Source: Botryllus schlosseri (taxonomy: Eukaryota). Taken from it: 64,000 bases of DNA. The translations under genes and the position numbers were made by a program. Location: the NCBI GenBank assembly GCA_051294905.1, contig CM119371.1:28956001-29020000 (forward strand), in the 5' to 3' direction. Positions 21,293 to 54,466 of the stretch are shown here, piece after piece (within the stretch, counting starts at the first letter, position 1; each line of letters starts with the position of its first letter). Under the pieces are notes generated by a model. That model worked only from the letters and a program-made list of their open reading frames with translations, searched no databases and was not told where the DNA came from.

Positions 21293-21440
21293 ATGACTAC
21301 GAATCTGGATAACATATACGTCGACATGAGACCGACAAATAATGGGAAATTCGTTCCTGCGAGCTCGTTACCTTATGATCTTGCTGGAGATATCGATTTT
21401 GACTGGATAAAGCGGCAAATGTCGTCGGAAGACGAACAAG
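21293..21440 (+). CDS. ATL: ATL-like exon 1 (N-terminal extension [12 protein letters not shown]...SEDEQ)
   Basis: ATG, open frame, donor CAAG|GTAGTT in phase 1 matching the phase-1 acceptor of exon 2 (G+AA = Glu). No recognisable homology, so this is the least certain exon. Confidence 0.65.
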
Positions 21441-33400: not shown

Positions 33401-36400
33401 TTGAAAAATTCATGTATTATCCAGCACAACAAATGTTGAGATTTTTTGTAAGAAATACTTCGATTATATATTCCCTCAGGAACAACATATGACGAGTATG
33501 TTCATAGGCCACATCATAACCCCCGACAGCGGTGTTGTGATTTCTACTCACTATTAGGAGCAAATCACTGACTTTGACACTATTGTTACCATATTTTGAG
33601 ATCCGAAATACAGGAAACTTTTTACAAGACACAAAAGCTATGATCAGACATGGGGTAATCGCGATTAGTAATCGTAATCGATTACGACGATTAAAGCATT
33701 TTCAAGTAATCGTAATCGCAATCGATTACATTCGAAAAAATTCCGAAGTAATCGTAATCGTAATCGACTCCGGTTAACCGTTATCCGGATAATCCAACCC
33801 TAGTAGGCTACGTACACCGAGCAAAGATTTGAAATTTTGTACTCGCCAAATAAAACATTACAATTTCCACAACGAAGCATTAAAAATCAACAGCTGCTGA
33901 TGTATATTAGGGTTGTCCAAAATTTGGAAAATCTCAAGAATGATGGGTATCAATGTCTCATTCTATATATTATTGATAAAAAACCGCAATGAGCCTGGAA
34001 TAAGCTCACAGGAAAGTCGTTAAGATTTGTCGCAAAGCGTTTGAAAGTAGCTACCGACCAGTGGGCGTGCCAGCGACCATAGAACGGCAACAAGACTAGT
34101 ATTCACGAAATCACGGCTCTCGATTGGCTAATCAGCTATGCTTCAGTGATCACGACGGTAGTGGCTTGCTGTTCAGTTGTTAAAGGAGTTTACTAACGGC
34201 GGTGATTCTGTAAGAGCATTGTAGGTTGGTTGGCAGATAATGATTTAAGATTGATCCAGGACATGTTGAGTGACTAGATACATGATGATGAACAAACAAC
34301 AGCTACTTCACACAAACTTAAAGCATGACTGGCTTACTGTGAAGGAAACCGCCGTAGCCTACATGTCTGTTTTGACCGATGGAAAGCACAGAACCTGCGG
34401 AGAAATATTGCAAAGGCGCTTATGCAAGAGGCAAACGAATTTCTTGTCTCAGAAGAGATGCATCATAATTGAATACAAATATAAAGCTTAACAATGACAC
34501 TACTTGGTCTGATCTTATTAGGCTCCAGTCGTGCTGTATAACTCAAGTCTTGAATGCTCTAAGGATTGGCTGAATCAGTTTTATGCTGGGGACTTATTAA
34601 ACTCTTACAGCAAAATGAATTCACTCGTAAGTGTAGTCAAAGTCGTCAATGATGCCGTAGAAAGAGGTGTAGAGGTAAGCACAGACTATGCTGGTATGAC
34701 CAGCAAAAATACAGTACATCTAACATGTCATGAAGGAATCTTGAATCATTACCGGCTGTAACACTACAAATGCTGGAATGTAAAACGAGCTTAAAATGCA
34801 TTGAAGCAGTGCGATAGTTACATTTCTTCGTGGTTCGATTATATAAGCTATCTGGTCGGCCAATATAACATCTTCTGAGCAGATAAGATTTTGTGCGGCA
34901 TCCATCTCACCTATGGTGTGCTGTACCAGTTTGCGATGACTACTATACTCTACTTACGCCCAGTCTGACGTATTTGCAACCATAACTAGGTATTTCTTGG
35001 ATTTATATCTTGTTCTAAAAGAGCACAATCATTCGCCGTTTCACATCTGTCATGCCTGCAATTCTCAAAGGCTAAGTCAAACTATACAATCAAACTGTCT
35101 TTTTAATGGGCATAATAACATAGTCTGTGCTTATACCTTTTAACTCTTTGTGCGGCATCATTGACGACTTTGACAGTCCCCAGCATATACGGCTGATTCA
35201 GCCAATCCTTAGGGCATTCAAGACTTCAAATATACCACGACTGGAACCTTATAAGATCAGACAAAGTATAGTGCCATTGTTAAGTTTTATATTTGTATTC
35301 AATGATGATGCATCCCTTCTAAAACAAGAAATTCGTTCACCACTTGCATAAGCGCCTTTGCAATATTTCTCCGCAAGTTCTGTGCTATCCATCGGCCAAA
35401 ACAGACGTGTGGGATACGTCGGTTTCCTTCACAGTAAGCCAGTCATGCTTTAAGTTTGTGGGAAGTAGCCGCTGTTTGTTCATCATCATGTATCTAGTCA
35501 CTGAACATGTCCTGCATCAATCTTAAATCATTATCTGCCAACCAACCTACAATGCGCTTACAGAATCACCGCCGTTAGTAGACTCCTTTAACAACTGATC
35601 AGCAAGCCACTGCCGACGTGATCATTGAAGCATAGCCGATTAGCCAATCGAGAGTCGTGATTTTGTGACTACTAGTCTTGATTCCGTTCTATGGTCGCTA
35701 GCACGCCCACTCGTCGGTAGCTACTTTTAAACGCTTTGCGACAAATCTTAACGACTTTCCTGTGAGCTTATTCCAGGCTCATTGTTGTTTTTTATCAATA
35801 ATCTATAGAATGAGACATTGATACCCATCATTTTTGAGATTTTCCAAATTTTGGACAACCCTAATGTATATCATAACCGAACCGTTCATTGCCGTTTCAC
35901 GTAACGGCAGCGTGCAGCGTGCAGCAGAAGGCTCATTTTTATTGTCACTTTATCTTATTATCATATGACTCTATAGCCTACTTTAAACGGGCGCCAATCG
36001 TTATTTTGCAATTCTTTACCTGCTGCCAGCCATCCGTTTATATGCCATGATAGTGTCGGTTGTAGCTAGAATAAGGACCAAAACAGCAATTCGTCCCGCA
36101 CTCAGAACGTTGGTTTTGGGCGCCAATAAGGTGATCAATTTTCAAGTTGAAGACTGAATTATCGTCAATAATATTAGTAATTACATTATATTACTATTCA
36201 ATTTTAAGCCTCTCTCAACCCCCCGATAGTCAGATTTACCTGTGGAGCTGTAGTCACGCAATTCATAATTATAACATCTGGTATGTTGTTGTAATTAGTT
36301 TATTGTTAATTCGTGACCTCCGGTCTGTTATATATAACATCAAAAGATATTGAAGTCACGCAAACGTATATGACGAAAAGAAAAACTTTCGTGAGACGCA

Positions 36401-39400
36401 CGGACAAATAATTGCCCTGTCTTTATTCCTCTGTGGGTGGCCCGGGTGGCATTTGTATTGCTGGCTCAAATTCTAAGGATAGGATTATTAGTCACGCACA
36501 CCCAACGCGGCTATTGACAATGGACACATGCTCAAAGTTTTGGCCAAGGTCTTTCTTTAATAATACACTTCTTGGAGTCAAGGTCTTTCTTTAGTAATAC
36601 ACATTTTGGTGGCCAAGGTCTTTCTTTAATAATACACTTCTTGGAGTCAAGGTCTTTCTTTAGTAATACACTTCTTGGAGTCGCATGTTGGCCGAAACTG
36701 CATTTGTCTTTTGGTATGTCGTGACTCGGTAATGACCAGCACCGAAATGCTTATTCCTGTAAATTATGCATGCTTTTTCCATGGGGGTGAGAGGTATGCA
36801 TTTCAAAATCAAGCTATCAAGAGACATTTAAATCACGAAGCCCGAAAAAAATGTTCATGTTATTCAAATCTCACGAAAATACTCTATAATTTATTTTGGT
36901 TTTACTAAATACTTTTGAGTCCCCTTCGAGCGCTCTCACCACCCTATTGGGGAGTTCAGGGTGCGGCAGTTACGGACCTGGCAAGAATGCAAATCGTTGG
37001 ATGCGATAAATCGTCCCTTATCAAGTTGGGCAATGGGTAAATTATGACGTAACAAGCAAATAGCGCATCATTTATTGAGAAAGTTTGTTATCTCATTAGG
37101 CCTTTTCGACGCAGGACGCAATCCTTATATTGTCTTCAATATATCTTGTAAGATTAGTTCTAAGAAGCAAAATAAATGTAATCGTGAGTAATCGTGATTA
37201 CTTTTCCAATGTAATCGTAATCGTAATCGACTACTTCCTGATTTTGCTGTAATCGTAATCACGTGATTCAGAAGTAATCGTAATCGCAATCGATTACATT
37301 CATGAAGTAATCACCCCATGTCTGGCTATGATACCGGACCAGAAACGGTAATTTTACAAAATATTACAGGAAATAATATTGGGTTGTCTAAAAGAAGGTC
37401 ATTTTTCAACTCGATTACTGAATGACCTGCTCCACTGCTCCTACACAATGGATTGACGTTGACCTTTTTGTCAAACCTGTCCTCACTGCCGCTGAAATCC
37501 TGATTTCGCGTCGCGCCTGGCTCTCAAAGCTGTAGAGCAGTGATTCCCAAACGGTGGGGAATAGACGCATTTGTTCGGAATTATATACAGGACAGTCTAC
37601 ATATTCACGGACACACATGGACAATTACCGTTACCAGTTAACTGCTCTGGAATGTATTTGTCGAAAATGATATTGCGTAATGTTCTCTGGATGGCCAGTA
37701 ATGATGGCGTCACAAACGCATCCAGCACGACTAGTTTGACGTGAAATAATGCTTTCGTGAGATTTTGAGCGTTACTGGTATCGGTTCACAATACGTTTTA
37801 TGTTGCAGTTATAGGTGATTGTCTTGCGTACTGGTGTGGTTGTGTGTTTGTTTGTTTGCTTTGGGGTATTCATGGTATTTGTCGACTACTATGGTCATTT
37901 ACACCAGACCGATATTCTTCTTATTATTCCGTATCTGTCAACTTATAGCACTGCCCACCTCTATAGGCTTTTTGTAAGACACCGCTGACGCGGATGATGA
38001 CGAGGTTGTGTGTCTTGTGTAGTCATACCAGCAAATAGCTGCTGTGTGATAACGAAAGTGCTGGGTAGTTGGGAACAGGACCGTAACTGCCGCACCCGAA
38101 ACCCCCCAATGGGAGGGGGGAGCTCGAAGGGGCTAAAATTATTTTGTGAATTAACCTGAATTAAGGTACTTTTTTTCGAAATGTATGCTACATTTTCAAA
38201 AATTTTTATTGCCGAATATCTGATTATTCGGTACCCTTCTCGGTACCCTTCCCGGGGCGAGCTCGAAGGGGCCCGAATTTATTTCGTGAATTAACATAAA
38301 TTAGAGTATATTGTTTTTTAATATATGCCACTCTTCTAAAAAAAATCGTTCTGGGTGGGCGATTTAATATTAACAAATATCTAATTATTGAGTAGCCAAC
38401 CCTTCCCCCCGCGAGTATACGTTTGTATCATTTGCTAGTAAAGCAATACCAATTTGAAATCGTGTGTGCCTTTTCGTTTTGGCGATTTCTATGTCTTTTG
38501 ACATAGCATAATGTAACGAAGTCATTATTCCAAATGGTCCACCCGAAGATGTTTAATTCTTATTTAGGGTTCCTAACTTTTCCAACACACCTCACTCAGC
38601 TCTACCGGTAAATCTGATTACGTGAACAGATAGGGGACAAAGAATTAATAGCAAGATATATGCAATTCCCGATCATACCGACCGATTCAAACACGAATTA
38701 TATAATTATTACGCGCTTCGCGTGTTTAGTCGAAATAAGGCGACGCGCTAAACAGTATGTAGTTGACAAGTTACAGGGAAAAAGCGTACAGGCTCGATCA
38801 GCGGGGCTAAGTGGGTTCTGGGGGCCAAAGACCAACGTTTTTTTCGTGGGGCTAACAAAGTGCTGTTACGGTCCTGGTGGGGAATGAAGGCTCGGAATAA
38901 ATCTGAAGTGGGGAATGAAGACAAAAAGGTTGGGAACCACTGCCATAGAGGAATACAAATTGCCAAAAAGGAGAATATTTAGGCGTACTTGGAGGACATT
39001 CTCGATTTCTTGAAAAAGAAGGAAGTACGGTAACACTAATTGACACCCAATTCTGAGAAGGCAAAAAAGTGCATATTGAGTTCAGAGATTGATGGAAAAG
39101 ATGACCAAATACCATTTATTCACAGAAGCGAAAACACCAGCGCGGAGCCCTTATATGCAGGTTACATGGAGAATAACATAGTTAGGACTACATGAATTGG
39201 TCACACTTCTGACTCAAAAGGTCCCCTACCTCGAGCGAAACCCATATCGCAATCTAATATTAATGAAGCAAATTCCAATTCCGCATTAGCGGTTAAATCT
39301 TTTGTATTCCTCACAACGTATAGGCCTGCGCAGTACGCAGTGTTGACGCCAGCATACCACTTAATCAGAGGGAACATGGAAATATGCAAACTTATATCGT

Positions 39401-42400
39401 CGTTAGAGCTACTGTTTTATTGGTTTGTAACCGTATTCAGCCGCCCAATCACCTTATTATTGCCAATTCTATCGTTAGCGAACAGAGGTAATCGAACCAC
39501 TATGATCCGTAATGTAATGTAAGTACCGTAATATACTATGTAGTGTAAGCTTGATAACATAGTATACAAATGAAAAACAAGGGTACGGGTTTTAAGGTAA
39601 TATTTTGGAATCATTTTACTGGTGCGGCCCTCGAGCGATCGGAAGGTGTGAATCCGGCCCGCGAAGTTGGTTGAGTTTGACAACCCCTGCTGTACAGTAT
39701 TCATGACGTTCCGACATCAACGGTTAGTTTAGATTGGACCAACTTTTATTTATTATGATTCTCCAACAGCTGACACGAGGCACGGCCAAATTTCGTCCTA
39801 CAGGCTTCTTTCAGACATGGTTTATGCGAATTTGATGGCGCTACGGAGCCTAGATAAACCCAGCTCATAATTATGAACATGTTCTTGAGTTAATGTCGGC
39901 CGTACAATAACCTGTCCCCTATCGGCGTTGCAGCAGTGGAACATATTACACCAATACTCTTCGCCACAGGTCCCAGTGAATATACATACCTTTACATAAT
40001 TGGCTTCACGTCTCCATCCGAACTGCCCTCTTCCCCGGCACGTTACGTTGTGTTTCTGTCCATTAGACATGCCCTCTCTATTCACAGATATGCGTTATTG
40101 CTATTGCCGGTCGACATGGATATTCAGACTTTGCGATGATTCACTGATCCATTCCAATATCAAAATCTTTTACAATATTGTAATCTTTTGACATGATTAA
40201 ATGAATAATCGACAAGTCGAATGAAATTATAGGTTATGAAGTGAAAATATTTTCGGCAAGTCATTGTCCCGCGACTGCTAATACTTAAGGCTGCTGCACA
40301 CTGGCTTTGCGACACGACTAAAACAGGTAATTCCCCGATCATGTCGCGCTCACGATCGCGGTAGTTGCGTTCTGCTGCACACTGGGACACCGAGTCGTAA
40401 CGTAGGCCCATCTGTTCTGTACCTACTTAATGATTTCGTAACAGTATAGGTTATTGGTTATTACTATTGAAGAACACATCAAGATACTTCCTACACAACA
40501 CATTGCTGATGCTCGGAATTTTGATAAGGAATATACACCATAATGTCACTAATATATTCTCAAATTCGAAAACTCAGTTTACTATTTCAACTCAAGACGC
40601 AGATGCACAATATACAGTACCCAAGACACAAAGAATATAAACAAGAAGGTGTCTAATCGTTGAAACGCCCTGTCATAGTCCATCAATCAGATATCTTTAT
40701 AATATATAGGCCTACTCTTCTTGGTCTACCGGTACTTTCGTAATGTCAAGCATGTCACTGGCATTGGCGGGCTAGCGGTCATGTTCTCTGTTATTCATCT
40801 TGTATTGTGAACATATAGTAATCTAATTATCAAATATATCTTCATTTCGTTCTTCTATCTTTAAGTTATCAAGTTGAGGTTGAATCATTCTTTTCCTGGG
40901 CTTGTTGGATATCATACAGCGCACTGCGTCAATCCCGCACAGCCTTCACTGTGTAACCCTAGATAAATTACGCATCTGGTACATGAGAATGTTAAATTAG
41001 GAAGTTGAACGATTAAAAAAGATTGCAACAGCACCGTCGAAATAAGAGCGCGTGCTCATGTTGTACTGCGACTGAGCCCGCAACTCGCGACAAAGTTCAA
41101 AATTTTCAACTTTGTCGGTGAGTTGCGCAGCCCACTCGCCGACGCTTTGTTGCGTAGTCTGGCGACGCGGTGTGCATGGTTTTGTCACAGACAGGCGCGA
41201 TTCTCTCGTTTTGTCGTGTCGCGAGAGCCAGTGTGCAGCAGCCTATATATGCAAGATGACAAGGATTAATATGTCGGCTATCATGTGTTTTAGAATTAAA
41301 AGCCGATAACAAATGGAAATTATTATGTGGGTGTCGTCAATACTCGATCTCTATCCGCAGATATCGACGAGGAATTCCTGGAAATGGTTCAAGAACTGGC
41401 TGATATCTTACTAAACCCGAAAAGTATAGTAACAAAGAAAATCAACGGACAAACAATAACTGGTAACTCACTGGTAAATTACGCTATCACGTGCGCTCGA
41501 AGCTTTACCGGCGGCAGTTTACCTAATCCACAAGCCATGCTTCAGGTGAGAAAGATAGGCTGACGCGTTCGCGCACACATCATAAGTATAAGTCTTATAC
41601 GATATGGTATATCCTATATCCGTGGTTCTCAACCTTGTCTTCGCGGACCCCCTTTGGACCGTCACGGACCCCCACGGAACCCCTCCACAGTTTTAGTTAA
41701 AATTTAGCTCAATTTTCGTGCAACCGTGTAAATATTAACTGTAGGCTGCTGATGAACAGCAACAAAATGAATTTTCTTGAAACTAACATATTATTTACGC
41801 AGAAATAAGGAAGGCTTTTAGTTGGTCAGAGCGAATTCTGTAGCTGCATTTCTTGATACACGCAGTCGTGTCCGCGCCGTCGATTTGCTATGAAGGAGTG
41901 TCCACAAAGATAGTTATATGATCGATTAGGTTTGGGTATGATAGCAGCATATATGGCACCGAAATTGAGAAACGGAGTTGAACATATAGCGTTCAGCCTA
42001 TAGTCATTTCTGTGTAGTAGATCATCATGAAGTTTTTCTGGAATAGCTGTTTATCACACGAGAAAATGGAATTTTGAAAACATTGTTTATTTGAAAACAC
42101 CAACAGAACATCTCCAAACTGTAATATTTTTGTATCTCAGTGGGTTATTGACAATTTGACAATTTAAAAGACTTTGTGCAGTAGACTATTTCATCTCAAA
42201 CGGCCGTTCTGTTGATATCAGTTCTTAAGTTTTAGCAGTTATGAAGAGAAACTGCTTCGAGATTTCTCCAATTTTTTTAAAAAAATAATACAAATCGGGT
42301 TATCTACTATTTTTCAAATTTGGAGACTTCACGGACCCACGATTGAGAACCACTGTCCTATACTATATACGAGGTGTCCGTAAAATTTTGTATGCAGTGT

Positions 42401-45400
42401 GGCAACTGTCAACAACTCGCGTGCTAAACATGTCGCGCTCGATTCTAAACAGAGGCCATATATCTAACAAATTTTTCGGGTGTCTTGAGCAAATTACCTC
42501 AACTTCGATTCGCGACTTTAATTTGATGCCTACATAATACCACTTTTCCAAGGTTACAATTGTATATTGTCTCTCATAGCTAAATTGACGGGGGTTGCTA
42601 ACCGTTGTCGTACGCTATATTTCTAACGGACCTGTGGTTTAATTTAGACGCAAGAGGAAGTTACGAATTTGCAGCTTTTGAGAGCTTGTACAGAAGAATA
42701 TGTGGCTCAAATGAAAAAGGTTGGTTCCCGCATTTATAATGGTTCTAATCTCAATGGAGAAGCATCTCATGTTTTCCAAAACTTTCTTTGAACTTGTCTG
42801 ATGGTAGTGACCTCATTCAGCAAGTATCACCATTATTCATTTCGGTGCAATGCCAGACGATTATTATCAATAGATAATTTGCAAGTCCGTATGGGACATT
42901 CATATCTAACTCTTCATGTGATTTCAATGCATTCGCAATTCCAAACCTAAATCATACCATCACCTGAGGTGTCAATGTGGCTACCTTTGCTACGCAAGTA
43001 GAGGAAACGCCGTTCAATTACAAGTAGAAGTAGAAAATGGAGATCTGAGAACTACTTTCAATTCAAATAGTAGATTTGGTGAATCGGAGTTAGCCTCTTC
43101 CGAAATTGAAGAGCGCATCTTCGCGACTCACTCAAAATGACTTATGGCACCACAAACAGTTGCAATGTCGGAAATGTATTCACTTACCGTGATAGCGGGG
43201 TTGTATGCCTCTAGGTCAGGGGAGGCGGGTAACTTATTCAGTCGGCAGGCCTGATAGCGGAACGAAGCACTTGGCGGGTCGGATTTATGAATCGATACCT
43301 TAATCTCGTATTTTTCCATCAACACAAGGAATAAATCGTAAGTTTCAAGCATGGAGGCCGAAAACAGTTAACGTAATGTACTTCGATCTTAGCCGGTAAA
43401 GGCAATGAAACATCTGTGGCTGATCAAAGTTCTTTAAACTCTGACTGCATGTCGGACATAGAAACCTTTAGTGAAAACTGCACGTGAACATCAGTTTCAT
43501 TTGAACTCAGCTTTGTCCTGCTCATGTTTGTTGTAGAAACTGTTTGCAAATGCATGTATACCGGACGAGTTTTAGCTTCACCCTGAATGCCTTCACAGTA
43601 AAAAAGATTTTGTGAGCAAAAGCGCCTCTCGCTTCAAGTATGATGTTCAACTCATTCATGCGTACAAAGTGATCAACCAAGCACTACGAAAAAAACTATA
43701 AGAACACAAATATAACAAAGACCTGAAAAATAACCTAATGCATCATCATTTGACGTCGTAACCAAGTAGGTCGAGTGGGAGATTGCGGCAGATTATGACC
43801 GCGGGTCACATTATCATGTAACAGCAGAAACTATCTGCGGGCGGCTCAAATAATCGTTGAGTTATATTTTTCATCTTGACAAGTCACACACAATGTACAA
43901 TGCGATAAGACACAATGCGATGTAATGAACAGATAGGAGGATGTCGAACGGCACGCAGTTGCGATTCTTTTAATCTAACACCCACCTTGGCCTAGAGTGC
44001 CCGATGTCACAGTTTTTTTCAATGTCGATCTTGTTGAAGCCGCGGCCCTTTCTACTAGTTCTTTCCATTCCACGTGATTTCTTTCGTTCCTTGTGCTCAA
44101 AATCATATCTTCAGCCGGGTACGGCCCGCGGACCGTATGTTGCCCGCCCCTGCTCTAGACTTTGGTTTCGTGTACCACGGTTGTATATTCACACACTTTA
44201 TTCGCTAGGAGTGTACTTTATACTTGACAGAATTCAAAGTGTAAAAAGTATGTGTAGTTTTGAAGGTATGAGTAAGTAGTCCAAATAGTCAATAAAAGGA
44301 AAACCTACTTGAGTAGCGTAACTTCAAATTCAGTTTTAAACTCTTAATATTCATTTTCGTTGTTTGTTGACAAACACAACTCCGAATGCATGGTAATTAC
44401 CGCAATCCTGTACCATGACCTTCACTGCTTACAAAACTCCGTCACAGCATATGCGGACTTTGGATCTGACTCACAATGTAACTATCTCGTAAGCAGCAGC
44501 AGCAGCAGCTAAATGACAATGTAATACACGATTCGTACCGATTTAGATCACAAGGGACCGGTACGTTTCTGACGAAGAACTCAGATCTTACCACGACACA
44601 ACGTGCAACTCGCAGCTGAAGTCATTTCGGCGTAGCGCGGGTAAAATCAATTCTGGGACAAGCGATCTGTATGGAGCAAAACTGCTTGCTTCTATGCTGG
44701 AGCAATTCGAGATCTTCCAGAGGACAAACTACGCAAAAGGGGTAAGAAACGAAAGCAGGAGGCTTGGTGCAGCCGTAGCCGAGCACCACCTATAGTGAAA
44801 GATGAGTCATTAATCAGTTTGAGGTAAATAAATAGGGAATGAGACTTTATGATTGACTGATTGTACTCAAATACAGTAACCACATAACTTTCCTTCTCTA
44901 ACAAAGTCGAGACATGATGTATTAGCTCCATTTGCACATTCTTCCGAACCGTTATGGATTTAGAAAGTGTTTTGAAAGTCCTCGAAATTTTGTGGAAATG
45001 AACAACATTGTGCGATTCCATAGACCATACTAATCAGGAGACTGGAAAGACGCAGTAGGCACGCAGTGCTATGGCCGTGCAGTACAGTGTAGCCAGACAG
45101 TAACGTACTATAAGCGCTATGCTGACTGGATGCTTCTGTCTGGAACGATATTCTACGAACTTTTGTACATTCTAGATGTGAAGTTTTTTCTCGTCGACTG
45201 AATGTAACTATATTTTGCCGGCAACTGCACTACACCATACTATAAACTGTTTATTTGTCACGACTCTCCTAAATCGAAGATATCTCCTTTTTATCAGAGA
45301 GAGATAGCCAGAGCAGTGAGAGAAAAAGCCAACCGCTATGTTCACGAATACGTCATGATGATGGAAGAGGTGAGACATTGTAGCAGGTATATTTTTGAAT

Positions 45401-48400
45401 AGGTTACCCCGGTAGGCGGGCTGCGGAGCAGGATTTGACGCATACGGCCCAATACATCGTACCAAAAACATATGGTTGACGATAGGGATGGTGTGAACGT
45501 GAGGTTCACGTTCGCGTTCTGTGTGTGAACCTAGGAAATTTAGAGGTTCACGTTCACAAACGAACCTTGGTAGGTCGTGCACTGTGAACCTTTTTGATAT
45601 ATTACAATTGTCACGTCATTATAACATCTTTGGTTGGAATTTTTTGTATTTCAACTGCGGGCGACTCTGTGCATGGCGCTTGCAGCATCAAAAATCAACA
45701 CTCAACGAGCATGCACCTTGATAATCTCAAAAATTATACCTGTTTTCTTAGAAAAGTTTGCTCGAAATATCCAGCTTTCTATTTGTGAATATTTAGTGAC
45801 TCTCTGCTGTGAGCTTGACCCGAATTCAAACAACATCAAGAGCGAAATACTCTACATGTAAGTAGTCAGCGAATGATGCTTATTCAACCAATCAATGAAA
45901 TTGATATCGTTATCTGATGTAAAAAATCTAGCAAGTGGGTGCGGGGTCCATCTCGATTTCATATGTTCATTATATCATAAAAACCAAATCCGTGCGATTT
46001 GGGTGTTGGCTACTGCTGTATAACTTGTTAATGGGGTGAAACTCGTTCAACCATAGTGTCCTATATGGTGTCGACACAAGCAAATCGCACGGTTCAATGA
46101 AATTGTATCACGTCACAGTTTCCATTTGGCTACAGGCAATTTGACGGTGATTTTTGACCGACTTGCCGAGCATCAAATTTGATAAAACGGGTATCAATCG
46201 AAAGCTGCCGCCGTACTGATTACGAAAATATAAATTTTATTCCGCTCGCGGCCCTGGAACCCCCACAATCAGCCTCTAATTTTTCATTGTTATGGAGATT
46301 GGCATTGGGACGCAACAATGCTGTCTGGCGAAACGACAGACGCAACAATACTGTCTGGCTCCCTTTTTCTCGAGCACCTGTCTCGTTTCGCTAGACAGCA
46401 TTGTTGCGTCCCAATGCCAATCTCCATAACAATGAAAAATTAGAGGCTGATTGTGGGGATTCCAGGGCCGCAAGCGGAATAAAATTTATATTTTCGTAAT
46501 CAGTACGGCGGCAGCTTTCGATTGATACCCGTTTTATCAAATTTGATGCTCGGCAAGTCGGTCAAAAATCACCGTCAAATTGCCTGTAGCCAAATGAAAA
46601 CTGTGACGTGATACAATTTCATTGAACCGTGCGATTTGCTTGTGTCGACACCATATAGGACACTATGGTTCAACACTCTGCTCAATATCAACGTAGCAAC
46701 ACTCAGACGCTGAATAAATCGTCCGGTCTGGTCCAGACCGTTAAGGCGTAATCTTATATTTCCTTGCAAGTCTTCGTCGAAATTGTTGGTATAGCGACGG
46801 AAGATGTTGATTTTATGGCATTATGATATTTGATTGCTCCACTGGATACATTTAGCGACGTTTAAAAATCAGTCTGTACTTCTACACTGTGGCATCATGT
46901 GGCCCGAGTCGTCACTATAGGTACCGTGCAGCGACTGTAGCCTACATTAATATATATCACTTCACTGAAATGTTTGGTTGGAATAAGCAATCTGACATCG
47001 CGTGACGTCACGGGTTCACGTTCGCGTTCACACAGAACCTTTGAAAAAGGTTCGCGTTCACACGAACCTGAACCTTTTAGAGGTTCACACCATCCCTTCT
47101 TGACGATGTTAATAAAACCAAGAAGTAATACGTCCGAGACTCCACATGCTTTTAGTAGCCAAACCAACACAATATTGGCACTACAAATCCCTGGAAATTT
47201 CTATAACATATTCATATACGATCACACAGGTGATGTTTCGTCAATTCTTACAATTTCACTCATAATCATAATGCAAACATATCCCCAAATCAATTTTACT
47301 GTTGTTGTTGTTGCTGTTGTTGTTGGAGGAAAATATAAGATAAACCTCCAACACTTGGTTAGGAATTCTGGAGTCGACCTCGGTCGGACTCGAACCCACA
47401 ACCCATTGGTGTTGCAGCTGCGGATTTATACCACTACGCTATCTCGCCTCTGTAAAAAACACTGTGGAAGTGGAAGTGCAAGTATAGGCTAAACTCATTT
47501 GATTACTCGGAAAAGTATCAGCGCTTCGTTACCGAACCCCTCTGCTTACCACTTCAATTTGATTGTGATACTACGGTATCGGGTGATGTAAGCCACTTGC
47601 GCGAATATACGTCTGGTGACCATTTCCATCGCTTCATTTCCCGTCATAGAACACGAAAGACAGTGGTCTGGAAGACAACGCGTTTGAGAAATGTCATCAA
47701 CTCAGTCTGCAAGCGAAGTTGACCGAATTCCAAGCGACTTGCAAAGGCCTGCACGGGTTTTCGGAGTCCCTGGAGGCGTTCCACATGGATGTAAAATTCT
47801 GTTTGGGCGTACTCACGAGGATCAACACCGACAAAAGAAATTTGCAACAAATGAAGACGGTAGGTGTCTACTAGAAATTAGTACAGGGTGTGTTGGAATT
47901 TTCGTCTCCATTACATGTAGAAATGGCGATTTCCAAGTCATGTCCAAAGAGCTCCGAGTCGAAGTAGGAAATGGAATGTCTCAAAAGTACTCAAGTATAG
48001 GTACTTTCGAAAAGCAGATTTGGTAGAGGGATTACGTACTTTCAGCAGTTAATCGGTGGTGAATATTTTCGAAATTTAAATAGTATCTTTGCGACTAACG
48101 CAAAATGACAAACGACACTGTGAACAGGTGCAATTTTCGAAAATGCATTCCGTCACCATGATACTAGAGCTATTCCGCCCGGGAGTCATGGGAGTTTCAC
48201 TAATAAAGGCGATCCAAACGTATCCCAAATCACATACTACTTGACAATGCCGAAAGAAGAAAAAGCAAGTAGCTTTACCTGAAAAAACCGCGAAGTTGAA
48301 ATGTTAGTAGTCAAAAACAACCATTGAATAAGAATGGTGCAAGTGATTAAAATCGTACTTGAGTACCCCGAAAGTACTTCGTTACTGACCATGACCTTCT

Positions 48401-51166
48401 CTGGGTAGCGTCTATGCCACCTCCATTTTATGACTTGGTAATTCTCACTGCATCTGCATCTATATCTACTTCACAAAGTATCACGCCATAGCTAATATAA
48501 TTCACCACGTCCCTGCATACTTTAACCATCCGCCCAAATTATCATCGGTGCACCTACAAAAATGACTCGTTAAAATTGCTTCTTGTACGATATGGTTCAA
48601 TTGAAAAACGGCGGAAATACGGATACGCTAGATTACTAGATAACACATTGATCTGTTCTTTCGAACCATCAAGGCCGTGTGCGGGTTACAAGCAAAAGTG
48701 GCGAATCCTAAATGTCACTTCCATCTTTGTACATGTATATTACCCTCGCTTTACCACATTTATGCATGTTATTACAGACTTCTACCTTGTCATGTTAATG
48801 TTTTGCAGAAAGACGATGATGTTAGAGTGAGGAATGTAATTCACGAGTGCGTAGAACTGTATAAAAAGCATATGAAAAAGGTAAGTCGGTTGCTGTAAGA
48901 GAATTGTGGTATTCGCATGAGATACATATCTGTATCTATATATTAGATCGATAGACCGTATACTCTTTCGTTTGAACATCCTCCAATCTGTTCATTACAT
49001 CATATTGTGTCTTATATATCGCATTACTTGTCTTGAGAATGAGAGGATGAGAGGATGAAAATAATAAGACCGCGGATTATTATAAGCCTATCGCAGAACA
49101 TGGGATAGCCTACCAGCCCCGCAATTCATTTCTGGTGTCTGATTATTTCAGTTTTCAAGACATTACATGGATTACTCGCTTCTCGTGAACGAGCACGGGA
49201 AGGTGAGAGGTCAGATTTTCAAGCACTTTGAGCAGAAGAGCAAGCTACTGACCGATTCGTCGGGGCCGTCGTCCGAACTTTCCGATAAATTACAGAACGA
49301 ATTTTGTGCCGTGGAAGCCGCGAATGAGACGAATCAAGTAAGCCTTGGTCGATTTCTATTAGCGTAGCTTCGCATACTGTGCAAGTGCATGAGTTGAAAT
49401 GGGTGCAATTATTGACTTGCCACAGCGTAGGGTTAGGCCGTAGGGTGAAAATCAGGCCAATGCTTCATGGTACAAAATTTCACTTTCATTCCCATTCCAA
49501 TGGATGAGAAGAGTCAAATACACCACTCCTCACGGATATATAACCCACGGATTGTAATGATTCGAGTCGGGTCGTGAGAGCCACTTTTCGAGAATTTTAG
49601 AGTCACTTTTTGAGTACCCTTGCAATTAAAAGCTATATTATGAACGACAATTCTGGTTTCGATACTTTAATTTATGTTGCAAGTTCGAAATCTCGATTGG
49701 TGGTATCAGAGCATCGAAAACATGTATCACAAATCTATAGGCACTGTAGTGCAGCATCGACCCACCTGCAGAATAAATATTTATGCTTGAAAAATACGAA
49801 ATTATACCATTGAAGCGGTTTATATATTTTGTTTTTATACATTTACCAAATCCTTCCAGCCCAGCCCTGATATAGGTCTACTCCGTTAGGTAGCCTAATA
49901 ATCTTTGCTATGCATTATTACGATAGTATTATTGGGTATACTTGCGTTCCGTACCAGCACGTCACATTTACGATATTTGTTTTTAGCGCATGCTTGGACT
50001 CGTGCTTCAACAGAAGCGAAACAAACTCATCGTGCAGTATCGAGTGACAATGTCGAAGGTGGGAAACATATCATACTCGGGCCTGATCCCATTTTTGCAG
50101 TTTTACTGCTGCTTACTGTAGTTTTGGAATGTGGTATTTTGCACTGTAAGCTATAGCTTTACATAAATGTTCTCTTTTATTAATAACATCTTTATCCAAC
50201 TCCATTACAGCCTCCCCCGGAGGTGATCGGTAACGAAGTACTTCTACTTCTTCGAAGTGGTCAAATACTACTTCGACTATAGTATACTGTTTCAAGTGGT
50301 TACTTTCTTGTACTGTAACATTCTGGATTTTTTCAAGTAAAAAGTAAATTTTGGATATCCTTGATTCACTTCAAACAGTGACATTGTCATGACAGCCGGT
50401 TCGGAGAATCCCTGTATCAGGCTAGGTAATTATATTTTGGAAAATCGCATATATATTTGGTGTCAATGGTCATTTTGCGTTACTCTCGAAGATACACCCA
50501 GAAATTTGGAAAGTGGCTGCCTCGGATTAACCGCTAAAAGTATGCGACCCATCGAAGTATAATGATCACATTTCAGTTCTGATTCTACTTGAGGAAATTT
50601 CGTTATGTCTGAAATTATTATTGCTATTTGTGATTAAGTGAAAATTTACGGCTTAACTTCGTTTTCTACTTTTACTTCTACAGTCATTTCGCGAAGGTTC
50701 ATCTTGCTTCACACAAATCAACTTTTTGGAACTTTCATTTTCTGTGTATCCCAGAAGTAGTTTTGACGTGAATCGGAAATACTCCTTCCATGAAATTGAG
50801 GAGAAATACACGGCGTCACTTCGGCGTCTATTTGAGTAGCAACGATGACTGGTTTATCCATCTTCAATATTTCAGGGTATGGCAGACGCCTACATCGAAC
50901 CAAGCGTGCTCGAAGCAACACACAGCAGCACTGAACAAAACGTAGTTGACCGCCTGATACACGATGACGAAGTGTTGGCGATTTGTACCTCGCCAATCAC
51001 GGACACTTTCGTTCGCAAGAACGTGGAACAGCTGAGGAAGGATATTCAGCAGATTTACGAGAAGTTGAGCCTCACGAACGAAGAAAACAGAAAACTCTAT
51101 CCCCAAACCACTAGAGGAGTGAAGGGTTTTTTCAAATCGATATGGAATTCGAAGAGTCCGTCATAA
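21293..51166 (+). CDS. ATL: Atlastin-like large GTPase, 769 aa, 15 coding exons: join(21293-21440,22562-22764,24813-24944,25863-26018,29356-29418,32910-33162,41361-41545,42648-42719,44547-44741,45298-45369,47650-47859,48809-48880,49152-49337,49987-50058,50876-51166); four tandem 3HB repeats, no TM hairpin
   Basis: Spliced by hand: all introns GT..AG, phases match, total 2310 nt with a single terminal TAA. G1 GAFRKGKS, G2 [16 protein letters not shown]3 LLMDTQG, G4 VVRDW, plus atlastin-typical [13 protein letters not shown] and LPNPQAMLQ. Family assignment is firm; orthology to a named ATL paralogue is not established. Confidence 0.9.
22562..22764 (+). CDS. ATL: ATL-like exon 2 (P-loop)
   Basis: ttgcag acceptor; [12 protein letters not shown]...[20 protein letters not shown]; donor GGA|GTGAGT. 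Confidence 0.95.
23033..23508. mobile_element. MITE, tagggttaccata family (inverted partial copy at 63678-64000)
   Basis: TIR tagggttaccata...tatggtaagccta; flanking repeat gataatg; internal tandem unit of about 65 bp. Confidence 0.8.
23948..24770 (+). mobile_element. Degenerate hAT/Charlie-like MITE (homologue at about 56821-57688)
   Basis: Shared catggtta.ga.gctgtca.cattgtctgtcctggagtt core and gcggcccgc subterminal motifs; boundaries approximate. Confidence 0.6.
24813..24944 (+). CDS. ATL: ATL-like exon 3 (switch I)
   Basis: ttttcattacag acceptor; [44 protein letters not shown]; donor GAT|GTAAGT. Confidence 0.93.
25140..25680 (-). mobile_element. Partial inverted copy of the GTTCAC-repeat MITE family
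   Basis: Reverse complement of the first ~520 bp of 4053-5036; ends cctcacgttcacaccctcccta. Confidence 0.8.
25863..26018 (+). CDS. ATL: ATL-like exon 4 (G3 DTQG)
   Basis: ctttcag acceptor; [52 protein letters not shown]; donor CAG|GTATTA. Confidence 0.95.
26682..26912 (+). mobile_element. tRNA-derived SINE family A (internally deleted)
   Basis: gtggcgaaatagcgctgtg...cagctgcaacgccaatg...ctaggctcctactcgcca...ggcctggtgtaaa...caaacaa. Confidence 0.75.
28646..29161 (+). mobile_element. hAT-type MITE (copy of 5146-5657)
   Basis: Same TIRs and body as 5146-5657; perfect TSD cttgtatc. Confidence 0.9.
29356..29418 (+). CDS. ATL: ATL-like exon 5
   Basis: tttatag acceptor; [21 protein letters not shown] (atlastin LFTEYG...PFQ); donor CAA|GTAAGA. 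Confidence 0.9.
29514..31179 (+). mobile_element. hAT deletion derivative with GACTCGAGTC arrays and a transposase remnant
   Basis: TIR cagggttgtaa...ttacaaccctg; perfect TSD gtatatag. Confidence 0.92.
30050..30246 (+). pseudogene. hAT transposase C-terminal (hATC dimerisation) remnant
   Basis: [37 protein letters not shown](frameshift)[11 protein letters not shown]...VFLNCN. Confidence 0.85.
32910..33162 (+). CDS. ATL: ATL-like exon 6 (G4 RDW)
   Basis: ttttgccag acceptor; KLMFVVRDW...[11 protein letters not shown]...FKGELK; phase-1 donor AAG|GTACAT. Confidence 0.95.
33908..35863. mobile_element. Large fold-back element with inverted arms of about 750 bp
   Basis: tagggttgtccaaaatttggaaaatctc...gagattttccaaattttggacaacccta; arms 33908-~34660 and ~35150-35863; perfect TSD atgtatat. 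Confidence 0.92.
36545..36681 (+). repeat. Minisatellite, unit of about 34 bp, x4
   Basis: caaggtctttcttta(a/g)taatacacttcttggagt repeated. Confidence 0.9.
37846..38005 (-). mobile_element. SINE family A, 3' half
   Basis: (tttg)n tail plus catggtatttgtcgactactatggtcatttacaccagaccgatatt. Confidence 0.7.
38076..38876. mobile_element. hAT-type MITE, caggaccgtaac family
   Basis: TIR caggaccgtaac...gttacggtcctg; TSD gttgggaa/gtggggaa. Confidence 0.82.
40288..41244. mobile_element. PIF/Harbinger-like MITE
   Basis: TIR aggctgctgcacactggct.t.gcgacacgac...gtcgtgtcgcgagagccagtgtgcagcagcct; TWA-like flanks (tta/ata). Confidence 0.75.
41361..41545 (+). CDS. ATL: ATL-like exon 7 (end of G domain and linker)
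   Basis: tccgcag acceptor, phase 1; [35 protein letters not shown]...LPNPQAMLQ; donor CAG|GTGAGA. Confidence 0.95.
41620..42355 (+). mobile_element. Buster/Charlie-like MITE (same family as 51184-52400)
   Basis: TIR ccgtggttctcaac...ttgagaaccactg; TSD tcctatat/tcctatac. Confidence 0.85.
42648..42719 (+). CDS. ATL: ATL-like exon 8 (3HB repeat 1, helix 1)
   Basis: 72 nt; [24 protein letters not shown]; tttaatttag acceptor, AAG|GTTGGT donor. Confidence 0.85.
43880..44100 (-). mobile_element. SINE family B, 3' part
   Basis: acacacaatgtacaat...gatgtaatgaacagataggaggatg matches the reverse complement of 59040-59143. Confidence 0.7.
44547..44741 (+). CDS. ATL: ATL-like exon 9 (3HB repeat 1, helices 2-3)
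   Basis: [27 protein letters not shown]...FQRTNYAKG; atttag acceptor, GGG|GTAAGA donor. Confidence 0.85.
45298..45369 (+). CDS. ATL: ATL-like exon 10 (3HB repeat 2, helix 1)
   Basis: 72 nt; [24 protein letters not shown]; tttttatcag acceptor, GAG|GTGAGA donor. Confidence 0.85.
45483..47098 (+). mobile_element. GTTCAC-repeat hAT-type MITE carrying a palindromic insertion
   Basis: Colinear with 4053-5036; TSD gttgacga/cttgacga. Confidence 0.9.
46051..46668. mobile_element. Near-perfect palindromic MITE with CCATAG termini and a 5-bp TSD (superfamily unclassified)
   Basis: Arms of about 290 bp with very few mismatches; ttcaa at 46046-46050 and 46669-46673; absent from the homologous site in copy 4053-5036. 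Confidence 0.9.
47300..47448 (-). mobile_element. SINE family A, 5' half
   Basis: Minus strand ggcgagatagcgtagtggtataaatccgcagctgcaacaccaatgggttgtgggttcgagtccgacc. Confidence 0.8.
47650..47859 (+). CDS. ATL: ATL-like exon 11 (3HB repeat 2, helices 2-3)
   Basis: [27 protein letters not shown]...[16 protein letters not shown]; tttcccgtcatag acceptor, ACG|GTAGGT donor. Confidence 0.82.
47884..48402 (+). mobile_element. Degenerate AGTACTT-type MITE (inverted relative at about 50217-50720)
   Basis: Shared aagtacttcgttac end and taacgcaaaatgac core; boundaries approximate. Confidence 0.55.
48809..48880 (+). CDS. ATL: ATL-like exon 12 (3HB repeat 3, helix 1)
   Basis: 72 nt; [24 protein letters not shown]; ttttgcag acceptor, AAG|GTAAGT donor. 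Confidence 0.88.
49152..49337 (+). CDS. ATL: ATL-like exon 13 (3HB repeat 3, helices 2-3)
   Basis: [26 protein letters not shown]...VEAANETNQ; tttcag acceptor, CAA|GTAAGC donor. Confidence 0.85.
49987..50058 (+). CDS. ATL: ATL-like exon 14 (3HB repeat 4, helix 1)
   Basis: 72 nt; [24 protein letters not shown]; ttgtttttag acceptor, AAG|GTGGGA donor. Confidence 0.82.
50876..51166 (+). CDS. ATL: ATL-like exon 15 (3HB repeat 4 helices 2-3, amphipathic tail, stop)
   Basis: atttcag acceptor; [16 protein letters not shown]...[22 protein letters not shown]...[17 protein letters not shown]. Confidence 0.88.
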   Translation, partial: GMADAYIEPSVLEATHSSTEQNVVDRLIHDDEVLAICTSPITDTFVRKNVEQLRKDIQQIYEKLSLTNEENRKLYPQTTRGVKGFFKSIWNSKSPS

Positions 51167-51183
51167 ATCCACAGATTCTAGAG

Positions 51184-52400
51184 CAGTGGTTCTCAACCTT
51201 TTTGTCTTCGCGGACCCCTTCCGGACCGTCACGGACCCCGCGGACCCCCACGAAGCTTTAGATCAAATTTAGCTCAATTATCATGCAATCGCCATTTGAC
51301 TTGTGCAAGTGATAGCTGTAGGCTTAGTTATAAAGAGCAACGAAATGACTTTTCTTGAAAATAAGATCATACTCTTCGTGTTGAAATTGGGATGACTTTT
51401 AATATTTCAAAGTAAATTCTGCAACTGCATATCCTTAAATACGGGGTGGTGTCTTGAAAATACGCGCCTTCGGTTTGATATGTACGAGTGCCGAAAATTC
51501 ATTCCCACAATTTTAGGTTATGGCGAATGTAATAATAACGCGTAACGCTTCCGACGACACATTTGGGTATGATCGCAACAAATATGGCACCAAAATTGAA
51601 AAGTGAATTTTTCAATGTACATACAACGTCAAGCCTGATCATTTCTATCTAGCACAGGGGTGTCAAACATACGGCATGCGGGCTGCATCCGGCTCGTCAG
51701 ACCACTTCATCCGGCCCGCGAGGCCATTCTGAGTAGATTGAAAAAAAATTAATCTCATTATCCGACAGATTTTTAACAGAAGTTGAGATTTTACTACTAA
51801 ATAATTCGTCGCAAATAATCCAGCATATTTTTCACCACGAATAGGTCGGACCAACGACGCATATCCGTTGTCCAGTGACATTGTCCACTAAAACGGGCAC
51901 AGAAATATTTCAACGATATCCTCGTTACAGCCACTCTTATAGTAGGTAATAAATGTATTCAATCGGCCAATTATCGTATTTTTGCCAATTCCATTGTTTG
52001 CGAATAACGTTGTTGCTGGAATAAAGTGGGCCCACATATTCCGTGATATCAATAAAGCATTCCAGTGAAAAGCAACGATATGGATGTCGACATAGCATAT
52101 TGAAATTATTTGACTGGTCCGGTCCGCGAGTGACTAAAACTCCACAAAATATCTCCAAACAGCAAAATGTTTGTATCAGTAGGCTATTGGCAATTTTGGG
52201 ATTAAAATGAGCCCGCACAGTACGATATTGCATCTCAGACGGTCATTCTGTTGATGTGAGCTCTGGAGTTTTACTAGTAATGAAGCGAAACTGTGCCCCG
52301 TGATTTCCCGATTAAAAAAATACAAACTAGGTTATTAAATATTTTGAGGCTTCGCGGACCCCCTAAAAATGCTTCGCGGACCCCTGGTTGAGAACCACTG
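51184..52400 (+). mobile_element. Buster/Charlie-like MITE 17 bp after the ATL-like stop codon, with a nested fragment from 51656
   Basis: TIR cagtggttctcaacc...ggttgagaaccactg; perfect TSD ttctagag. Confidence 0.92.
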
Positions 52401-54466
52401 TTCTAGAGCATGTCGCTGTATTTTTAAATTACAGTTGAACTACGTCTTCGAATGCGGGATTCAGGCAGAATAATGTCTAAATCCGTCGAAATACCTGATA
52501 TATTTGCGGAAATCGTGAATTTAGCCATTTCAATATCTGAGCCAATATTCATATCTGATATCTCTCGTTAAATTGTTAGTATACATAATAGTTGCATTAC
52601 GGTATACGCTGCCAAAAGACGACGACTCATGATGAAGCAGGCGCTTACTATCCCCACATTATCAAATACATACGATGATAATTCGCTGCCTGATCAAATA
52701 GATAGCGCGACACGCCGTTTGACGGTGGGTGGTCTGGTGGTAAAGTTTGTGTAACTATGCACCTTTACGTTGTCGGTTCCAGAGCTATCGGCAACAGTGT
52801 ATCATCTGACTGCGTACAGATTGGTCACACCTGACAGCCTCAAACCGAACCCGAAACAGTGATATCGGATATTTTTTCGAGCTCGATAACTGTTGTTCGA
52901 TGTAACAGTGCGAATAGGATTGCATTTGAAACAAATCAAACATACATATTCAAAACAAGTCCCTTGTTTGAAACATGTTTTTTATCGTTTTTTAAGCCAT
53001 GACGTGACGAATATTAAATTGTCACTTCATTGTCGATTGACATTAACAATTAAAAATATAGCTCATTTTACGAAATAGGCTTCCAACAACTGTTATATAC
53101 CGTCCAAAAATGTTTTTAACCCGGACTAAATCGTCATGTAGCATTTTTACGGTCGGCAGTCATCATCATCATCATCATAACATTCATTCCGTACCAATCC
53201 AAAGCTACAACACCAATGGGTTGCGGGTTCGGGCCGACTTCAGAATTGCTACCTAACTGTTGGAGGTATAACTAGGCTCCTCCTCTTCATCTCATCCGTG
53301 CAAGCAGTGGCTTAACTCATTATTTTAACACATTATGCCCGGCACAACAACAATTTTATCCAAATATTTGAAAATGTGATATTTTCCGCGTCAAGGGGGC
53401 GTCAAGGTTTAGCTTTACACAGTAACAGCTGCAGTGGTGGTATAGTCTAGTCAGTAAAATTAAGTCTGCGAGATCACCAAATTGTCTTCGCAGAAACTAG
53501 GGAACGATCTTCGAACTTTTTGGGTTCGCCTTCAAAATGCATAACCAGTTGTTGTCATAATAATAGCATTAAGCTTTCTGATTGAATTTCCTTTAACTTA
53601 TTTCGGTGAAGTAGGATTTCCTGCAATGTTATCTATAAAAACGAAATAAGTTTGCGATTGACAATGACATGAGAGATAATGTAAATACCTCCCCTTTGAC
53701 GAGATTTGACCACTAGATAACATGAGAACAGCACCAGCCTTCCCATTGACTTGATACTTTTAACAGGCATTTCAGTGTACAGGTACATTATGACGTCATC
53801 TCTGTGCTGTTTAACAATTAATTGAGTGCAAGCTGTTACTTGATATCTTCTGAAAGGGGGTAATTGCATCCCATCATTTTCTTATTAAGGGTAACGACAT
53901 GAAAAAGGTTGAGAACCACTGCATTAGAGTTTGAGACCCCTGCCGTAAATGACGAGAGGCCTATGCTTATGACATCACAGGAGGAATATAATTTACATGT
54001 TGCGTACAGCTGATATGAACAGCATGTTCTGAAGCATAAATTTGTCTATTTATTGTGATAGCTAGGCAACGGCCCATTTTAATGCGGTTCTGGTACATCC
54101 CAGTACACCCTTTCCACCCTTTCAAAGTTTGGGTACACCCTGTTGGTGTACGATAACCCGATTGAAGAGCCCTGATTTAAGACAATCTTTTCTATAGTGC
54201 AGTGTTGAATAAATGTTGGTAGCTTTGTAACTGGTACATAAATGCAACCTTTTATTGCAACAGAAACTTGTCCTATTAATTAATGATATCCAGTGTACGT
54301 ATATAGGGACTTTAAATTGCGCGTTGCGTCATACATACCGATCATGGATATTGAAGCCGAACAATTGACAGGCGAGACTTTGCTGATAGGTATGGCGTAT
54401 ATTCACAAAAATTACAAGGTAAGCGCGGCATACGTACGATATACAGGTTCGACTTGTACGCCTTGC

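Follow-up and report, generated by a model that had tools for sequence, protein, structure and literature searches.

A Botryllus schlosseri atlastin paralogue predicted to lack the transmembrane hairpin and to end in a short basic amphipathic tail

A gene of the tunicate Botryllus schlosseri bears on the question of how the architecture of atlastin, studied as an integral-membrane fusogen, and that of the guanylate-binding proteins (GBPs), studied as soluble lipid-anchored defence GTPases, are converted one into the other. The gene lies in a stretch of 64,000 nucleotides (contig CM119371.1; G000:C1:28956001-29020000 in an assembly of 495.5 Mb and 219 contigs), which is called the window here and in whose own numbering positions are given. 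The gene is predicted to encode a cytosolic, transmembrane (TM)-less paralogue or derivative of atlastin with an intact GBP/atlastin-type GTPase domain, and the predicted architecture is this domain, the atlastin three-helix bundle and three further two-exon bundle modules, followed by a short tail that is amphipathic and basic. Loss of the TM hairpin alone is not new, having a precedent in BmAtlastin-n of the silkworm. The tunicate lineage, however, holds natural intermediates, namely a canonical copy with the hairpin, paralogues whose ends are hydrophobic and others that have just a nine-residue amphipathic stub, and with such intermediates in one genome the question of architecture is therefore testable by simple localisation and liposome assays.

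Gene model and transcripts

The segment 50876-51166 is the last exon (exon 15) of a 15-exon atlastin-family gene. An AG acceptor (tttcag/GG) stands directly before 50876, and 96 open codons are followed by the stop codon TAA at 51164-51166, the coordinates and C-terminal sequence being those given in a preliminary description of this DNA. A search with exon 6 found 68 % identity over that exon to the Styela clava 'atlastin-3-like' protein XP_039274806 (756 aa; hereafter P0001), which by tblastn is colinear with the window from 22567 to 51154; exons 2-15 were set by tblastn of P0001 together with GT/AG sites in matching phase. The assembled protein has 719 aa without exon 1. An exon 1 with an ATG was not found upstream, where a scan for frames running from an ATG to a donor gave one weak candidate only (21293-21440) and the related copy on contig C13 was of no help.

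Four sequencing runs were aligned to 32800-52799. Spliced contigs are present in X1 and X3, runs of two different studies that were assigned as RNA by guess; the X3 depth of 23.5 on exon pieces, against 0-2.5 in repeat-free intron bins, fits RNA. The X3 contig (2658 nt) lists exons 6, 7, 9, 11, 13 and 15, with gaps of 70-72 letters that match exons 8, 10, 12 and 14. Among the joints listed, eight of the GT..AG type lie exactly at predicted sites, seven of them in both X1 and X3 and one (42719/44547) in X3 only, whereas the joint of exons 9 and 10 is taken from contig arithmetic, because 71 contig letters separate the exon 9 and exon 11 pieces. Almost no reads of the raw bulk RNA runs X13 and X14 lie on the exons. 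Among the best-supported differences, none of the four polymorphisms listed in exon 15 changes the protein, and 10 of the 12 listed over exons 6, 9, 13 and 15 are likewise synonymous. The exons, with the evidence for each and the joints common to X1 and X3, are as follows.

22562-22764, + strand: exon 2, with the P-loop GAFRKGKSF; PF02263 match (E 6.4e-10) on the open reading frame (ORF) 22471-22884, tblastn to P0001 32-93, splice sites; 5′ boundary uncertain, with an alternative acceptor at 22517 (+ strand).
24813-24944, + strand: exon 3, switch-1 region; tblastn to P0001 94-141 (E 7e-13), AG/GT sites in phase 0.
25863-26018, + strand: exon 4, with the G3 motif DTQG; PF02263 match (E 4.6e-18), 86 % identity to P0001 137-187.
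29356-29418, + strand: exon 5; tblastn to P0001 176-217, splice sites.
32910-33162, + strand: exon 6, with the G4 motif RD; PF02263 match (E 2.9e-10), PDB atlastin-1 (E 4e-12), joint 33162/41361 (X1, X3).
41361-41545, + strand: exon 7, linker and helix 1 of the first three-helix bundle; PDB atlastin-1 residues 287-350 (E 1.3e-7), joints on both sides.
42648-42719, + strand: exon 8, 72 nt, start of stalk module 1; joints 41545/42648 (X1, X3) and 42719/44547 (X3).
44547-44741, + strand: exon 9, end of module 1, stopping at ...RTNYAKG; X3 contig piece, comparison with the canonical last exon.
45298-45369, + strand: exon 10, 72 nt, module 2; joint 45369/47650 (X1, X3), the joint to exon 9 from contig arithmetic.
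47650-47859, + strand: exon 11, module 2; joints, tblastn to P0001 473-538.
48809-48880, + strand: exon 12, 72 nt, module 3; joints 47859/48809 and 48880/49152 (X1, X3).
49152-49337, + strand: exon 13, module 3; joints.
49987-50058, + strand: exon 14, 72 nt, module 4; open-frame scan between AG and GT, joints 49337/49987 and 50058/50876 (X1, X3).
50876-51166, + strand: coding part of exon 15 with the stop codon; tblastn to P0001 654-746 (39 % identity, E 5.5e-19), joint 50058/50876.
51107-51163, + strand: tail, with the predicted short helix VKGFFKSIW at 51119-51145; rank of the hydrophobic moment, conservation, AlphaFold helix at residues 82-90 of the exon (low confidence).

From exon 8 onward the gene is a fourfold succession of a 72-nt exon and an exon of 186-291 nt, all in phase 0. 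The likeness among the four modules is weak: five of the six pairs reach z values of 2.3-5.9 against 500 shuffles, and the pair M3-M4 has a z of 1.0, with 84 of the 500 shuffles scoring equally high. A word-index protein search with the terminal exon returned 116 candidates, none of them scoring, an index of this kind being unable to reach 39 % identity.

Kinship to atlastin

The + strand carries the motifs GAFRKGKSF at 22699 (G1), DTQG at 25881 (G3) and RD at 32922 (G4), the P-loop arginine is present in the gene model, and the Pfam GBP domain (PF02263) matches three of the 138 + strand ORFs of at least 45 aa between 22.2 and 51.6 kb. When sequences of the PDB were searched with two of the exons, 13 of the 14 matches in each case were to atlastin-1, atlastin-3 or Drosophila atlastin; all matches at E<=0.0045 are atlastins, and the fourteenth is at chance level (E 0.36-0.37). 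The AlphaFold model of P0001, with a mean predicted local distance difference test score (pLDDT) of 87, matches the cytosolic domains of ATL1 (1-447) and ATL3 at Foldseek TMt values of 0.84-0.89. The three-helix-bundle middle domain behind the linker is indicated both by the alignment of exon 7 to ATL1 287-350 and by the superposition of the P0001 model. That the gene derives from an atlastin, as the preliminary description proposed, is borne out by the PDB matches and by the fold of P0001.

Loss of the transmembrane hairpin

Two further claims of that description, the want of a hydrophobic stretch of TM length and of a CaaX box, agree with the gene model. The customary threshold for a TM segment is a Kyte-Doolittle mean of 1.6; the maximal mean over 19 residues (KD19) in the 719-aa model is 1.19, inside the GTPase core, and since no 19-residue window exceeds this value no TM segment is predicted. 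The maximal KD19 of P0001 is 1.26. The protein ends in KSPS, with no Cys in its last four residues. When five TM-bearing C-termini (those of the canonical copy and of P0013, P0020, P0085 and P0010) were compared with the 64-kb window by tblastn, no TM-like stretch was found, the best E-value being 0.34.

The genome also keeps a separate canonical atlastin with a TM hairpin and a helix behind the second TM segment (TM2), on contig C11 (G000:C11:27383372 to ~27394600), a possibility raised earlier. Its last exon reads ...KANEAKNIFHAGRTPATFFACAILCYIVSSIFGFIYL..ISALFNVAFVGFLSALLVWSY... (Kyte-Doolittle mean 2.22). The exon layout of this gene is that of the window gene up to the start of the hairpin, including an exon of ~72 nt that encodes bundle helix 2 at the position of exon 8, and the point at which exon 9 breaks off in the window gene (...RTNYAKG) is exactly where the C11 exon (...KANEAKNIFHAGRTPATFF...) continues into the first TM segment (TM1). 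The window gene thus shares GTPase motifs, linker, three-helix bundle and exon layout with the canonical atlastins (ATL1-3, Drosophila atlastin and the C11 copy) but differs in the missing hairpin and the three extra two-exon bundle modules; no similarity could be detected between its tail and the C-terminal helix of the canonical proteins, and in the tree described below it falls outside the canonical clade. Downstream of the C11 gene, at ~27401782-27403000 of that contig, we note an open frame of 406 aa in which hydrophobic segments are numerous (Kyte-Doolittle means up to 2.91) and which looks like a multi-pass transporter.

A missing hairpin in the model could also mean that a TM-bearing isoform splices from exon 9, 11 or 13, or from inside exon 15, to an unseen exon, the anchorless form being one product of the gene. 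Contig runs can show the presence of isoforms, not their absence, and they drop rare variants; there are 39 joints beyond those listed, and for S. clava LOC120331981 isoforms of 796, 772 and 573 aa are annotated, of which the shortest is without a hydrophobic end. All of the listed GT..AG joints are nevertheless constitutive and common to X1 and X3 where both cover them, nothing in the 64-kb window is similar to the atlastin TM regions compared with it, the S. clava homologue has the same end in two NCBI annotation versions, and read-through of the TAA would meet a TAG five codons on (the TAA counted). We therefore regard a TM-bearing isoform as highly improbable.

Properties and conservation of the tail

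Hydrophobic moments (µH) were calculated with the Fauchère-Pliska scale. The 11-mer of the tail that covers the VKGFFKSIW region has a µH of 0.70 and a net charge of +3 and ranks second among the 709 11-mers of the protein, after the helix behind the P-loop, so that the tail is indeed both amphipathic and basic, as had been described. The closest paralogue, on contig C13 (G000:C13:19086776-19099203), is more compact, with ~7.4 kb for the GTPase part, and has an even clearer basic amphipathic tail, ending in ...KSAFKKFVQKIFAKS before its stop codon (at greater length, ...NKKLYMKTKKSAFKKFVQKIFAKS). The tails of both copies have hydrophobic residues spaced i, i+3, i+4, i+7 and i+8 and flanking Lys/Arg residues. 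Residues T78, K83, F85 and I89 of exon 15 are invariant in the window gene, the C13 paralogue and P0001, and positions 85, 86, 89 and 90 are hydrophobic in all three, with Ser in place of V82 in S. clava; the tail motif can be written K-x-F-h-x-x-I-h, where h is a hydrophobic residue. Since four residues are invariant in three independent sequences, the shared pattern is, as judged from the alignment, more than chance.

The tail was previously called MinD-like and was said to stand instead of the hairpin. The likeness to the MinD targeting sequence, likewise an amphipathic helix of very few residues at the C-terminus that combines Lys/Arg with Phe/Ile/Trp, is an analogy of pattern and not kinship: MinD is an unrelated protein from another kingdom, and the likeness is convergence at most. 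The hairpin is absent as stated, but 'instead' is too strong, as canonical atlastins reportedly also carry an amphipathic helix behind TM2 (according to the title of a 2012 paper by Liu and colleagues).

What the tail does may be approached by analogy with MinD, a single C-terminal amphipathic helix of which binds too weakly, while ATP-driven dimers bind, according to the available part of the source (PMC8155659). By the same avidity logic, the tail would by itself give weak, perhaps reversible, peripheral membrane binding, which would become effective only once GTP had driven the GTPase domains into dimers or oligomers and so joined at least two tails. That the tail binds membranes and is gated by GTP-driven dimerisation is the mechanism we prefer, though we rate its chances as no better than even. 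Helix formation on membranes, nucleotide gating and a role as a tether or in defence are what we infer from these comparisons.

Several observations weigh against membrane binding by the tail. Its µH is reached by 740 of 20000 shuffles of the 11-mer (3.7 %), and conservation of the tail does not exceed that of the exon at large (invariant columns: 4 of 14 in the tail, 16 of 96 in the exon). The S. clava tail has a µH of 0.46 and ranks 117th of 746. The predicted helix is of ~9 residues and includes a Gly; when exon 15 alone was modelled by AlphaFold, a helix was placed at 82-90 with block means of 53 (81-90) and 45 (91-96), and residues 733-756 of the P0001 model have a pLDDT <50. Three relatives (P0042, P0011 and the Phallusia protein P0059) show no such tail. 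Finally, in the available part of the report on it, BmAtlastin-n was seen in the cytoplasm and its membrane association was left open (PMC4926086).

The low AlphaFold confidence, the weak moment in the closest S. clava protein, a conservation equal to and not above that of the exon and the reported cytoplasmic location of BmAtlastin-n would all suit a soluble atlastin-derived GTPase, the tail of which is a docking or autoinhibitory peptide on the stalk or a partner, or a tolerated disordered end. Such a protein would not call for the spacing of hydrophobic residues and the Lys/Arg residues kept in two paralogues of this genome, nor for the recurrence of amphipathic or hydrophobic ends at the same position in several S. 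clava paralogues; we consider it quite possible, though not probable.

Origin of the tail

In position the tail corresponds to TM1 of the canonical C11 copy, each coming directly after an N-E-x-x sequence that closes the last bundle helix. Two derivations from the canonical membrane region were tried, each with a profile from 13 canonical sequences, and neither was supported. Against the TM1 profile, 625, 490 and 77 of 1000 shuffles equal the three real tails. Against the profile of the helix behind TM2, 143 of 1000 shuffles score equally for the window tail and 602 of 1000 for the S. clava tail, the C13 tail being unscored. The profiles do not lift the tails above shuffles; the ideas of a TM1 stub and of a retained helix rest on position.

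It might still be argued that the tail is no new invention but a remnant of the membrane region of canonical atlastins, be it the opening turns of TM1 or the amphipathic helix behind TM2 left after excision of the hairpin. It sits behind the N-E-x-x end as TM1 does, the canonical tail ...NNIWDA can be set against ...KSIWNS of the window tail, and paralogues with the same four-module stalk (P0085) still end in long hydrophobic stretches. With both profiles scoring the tails no better than shuffles, we think such a vestige rather unlikely.

The paralogue family

At least 32 exon-level matches to the GBP domain are present in the genome, on contigs C1, C2, C4, C6, C10, C11 and C13, together with 45 matches to P0001. 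When the full library was searched with P0001, 3331 proteins matched at E<=0.001. Among the 150 of these matches that were listed, 62 are without a KD19 of 1.6 or more, 19 of them being at least 600 aa long, and nine of the 150 have a C-x-x-x end; the named members include eight proteins of S. clava and one each of Phallusia, Bombyx and Planococcus.

The C13 paralogue and the S. clava protein XP_039274806 (P0001/P0179) have the architecture, the colinear exons and the tail motif of the window gene. The S. clava tail differs in being more hydrophobic than amphipathic and in its 10 additional, acidic residues. Several S. clava paralogues also have an amphipathic or hydrophobic end at this place, after the N-E-x-x with which the last helix closes. 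The alignment of P0085 with the model covers residues 4-687, beyond which P0085 continues into long hydrophobic stretches up to its end; the hydrophobic ends of P0085 and P0010 have Kyte-Doolittle means of 1.7-1.95, that of P0010 being 20 residues long. The end of P0121 is KSWWKRVSKFF and that of P0132 is SLWARIKEKFASLF. When the window model and seven S. clava paralogues were scored, the highest-scoring 11-mer within the final ~30 residues ranked first or second protein-wide in three of the eight (the window model, P0121 and P0010).

In a tree of 40 rows built from the GTPase domain and first bundle, which is unrooted and weak in its deep branches, the window gene, the C13 copy and P0001 form one clade with a Shimodaira-Hasegawa-like approximate likelihood ratio (SH-aLRT) value of 99, and the C11 copy groups with the canonical atlastins. 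Because P0001 groups with the C13 copy (SH-aLRT 86), it may be a co-orthologue rather than an orthologue of the window gene.

Comparison with known systems

A TM-less atlastin is a known kind of protein. The silkworm Bombyx mori has BmAtlastin-n, of ~770 aa, which in the available part of its description is TM-less and cytoplasmic and restricts B. mori nucleopolyhedrovirus (BmNPV), and Atlastin3 and Atlastin4 are described there as likewise without TM segments (PMC4926086). In the part of a review that was available, BmAtlastin-n is grouped with the GBPs, and it is asked whether, in invertebrates without GBPs of their own, atlastins have assumed the roles of these proteins (PMC9005921). The window gene product resembles BmAtlastin-n, so far as these sources go, in its atlastin-family GTPase, its helical middle, the missing TM segment and its place beside canonical TM-bearing atlastins in the genome (PMC4926086, PMC9005921). 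The antiviral and anti-microsporidian activity reported in the accessible text belongs to the silkworm protein only. P0044, a TM-less Bombyx atlastin of 751 aa whose identity with BmAtlastin-n is unverified, stands apart from the tunicate clade and has no amphipathic tail; it groups with unnamed sequences in the same tree, and common descent with the insect TM-less proteins is thus not supported. TM-less atlastins of tunicates were not found in the literature searched, and in that literature both this tunicate lineage and its tail are undescribed.

The likeness to GBP1, GBP2 and GBP5 appears to be functional: these are soluble large GTPases of the same superfamily, their helical stalk is long, and next to basic residues they have a C-terminal end that directs them to membranes, as is proposed for the window protein. 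In the Foldseek comparison with the P0001 model, by contrast, GBPs have 16-20 % identity and rank under all atlastins, and the window protein is without their CaaX box. The GBP_C domain (PF02841) was found neither on P0001 nor on ORFs of the window, and an exon-wise search of the genome for it found none, a weak result in that the controls matched nowhere either.

The support for a GBP-like role consists of the precedent of BmAtlastin-n, as given in the available part of its description (PMC4926086), and of the large paralogue family. One could go further and propose that tunicates built their own GBP-like family for defence or organelle tethering from atlastin, with anchors graded from hairpin through single hydrophobic end and amphipathic stub to none, and with the tail as a GTP-gated, avidity-dependent membrane switch; taken as a whole, this scheme would seem to us improbable.

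The 3′ untranslated region and the introns

The X3 contig passes the TAA to 51175 and resumes at 52401-52689, skipping an element of 1217 bp in the 3′ untranslated region (UTR).

51184-52400, strand not assigned: 1217-bp element bounded by 15-nt inverted repeats CAGTGGTTCTCAACC; identified by the inverted repeat and skipped by the X3 contig.
52401-52689, + strand: continuation of the 3′ UTR; X3 contig, letters 1-289.

The element is flanked by an 8-bp target duplication, TTCTAGAG, at 51176-51183 and 52401-52408, which begins 9 nt behind the stop codon, so that the protein is untouched. Since the assembly contains the element but the X3 transcript contig passes over it, its insertion is probably polymorphic. 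We note that related copies of this element lie near 41.6 kb of the window.

Among the introns, that between exons 5 and 6 contains an ORF (29987-30181) which, because it matches the hAT C-terminal dimerisation region (PF05699, E 3.2e-10), is taken to be a transposase remnant. At 46158-46662, in the intron between exons 10 and 11, ORFs on both strands have near-identical translations (for example, 46234-46443 on the + strand and 46276-46485 on the - strand), which indicates a long inverted repeat. The stretches 33467-34133, 36802-39469, 43472-44138 and 45473-47473 have very high depth in the four runs and many loose ends; these are transcribed or multi-copy repeats and not exons of the atlastin-family gene.

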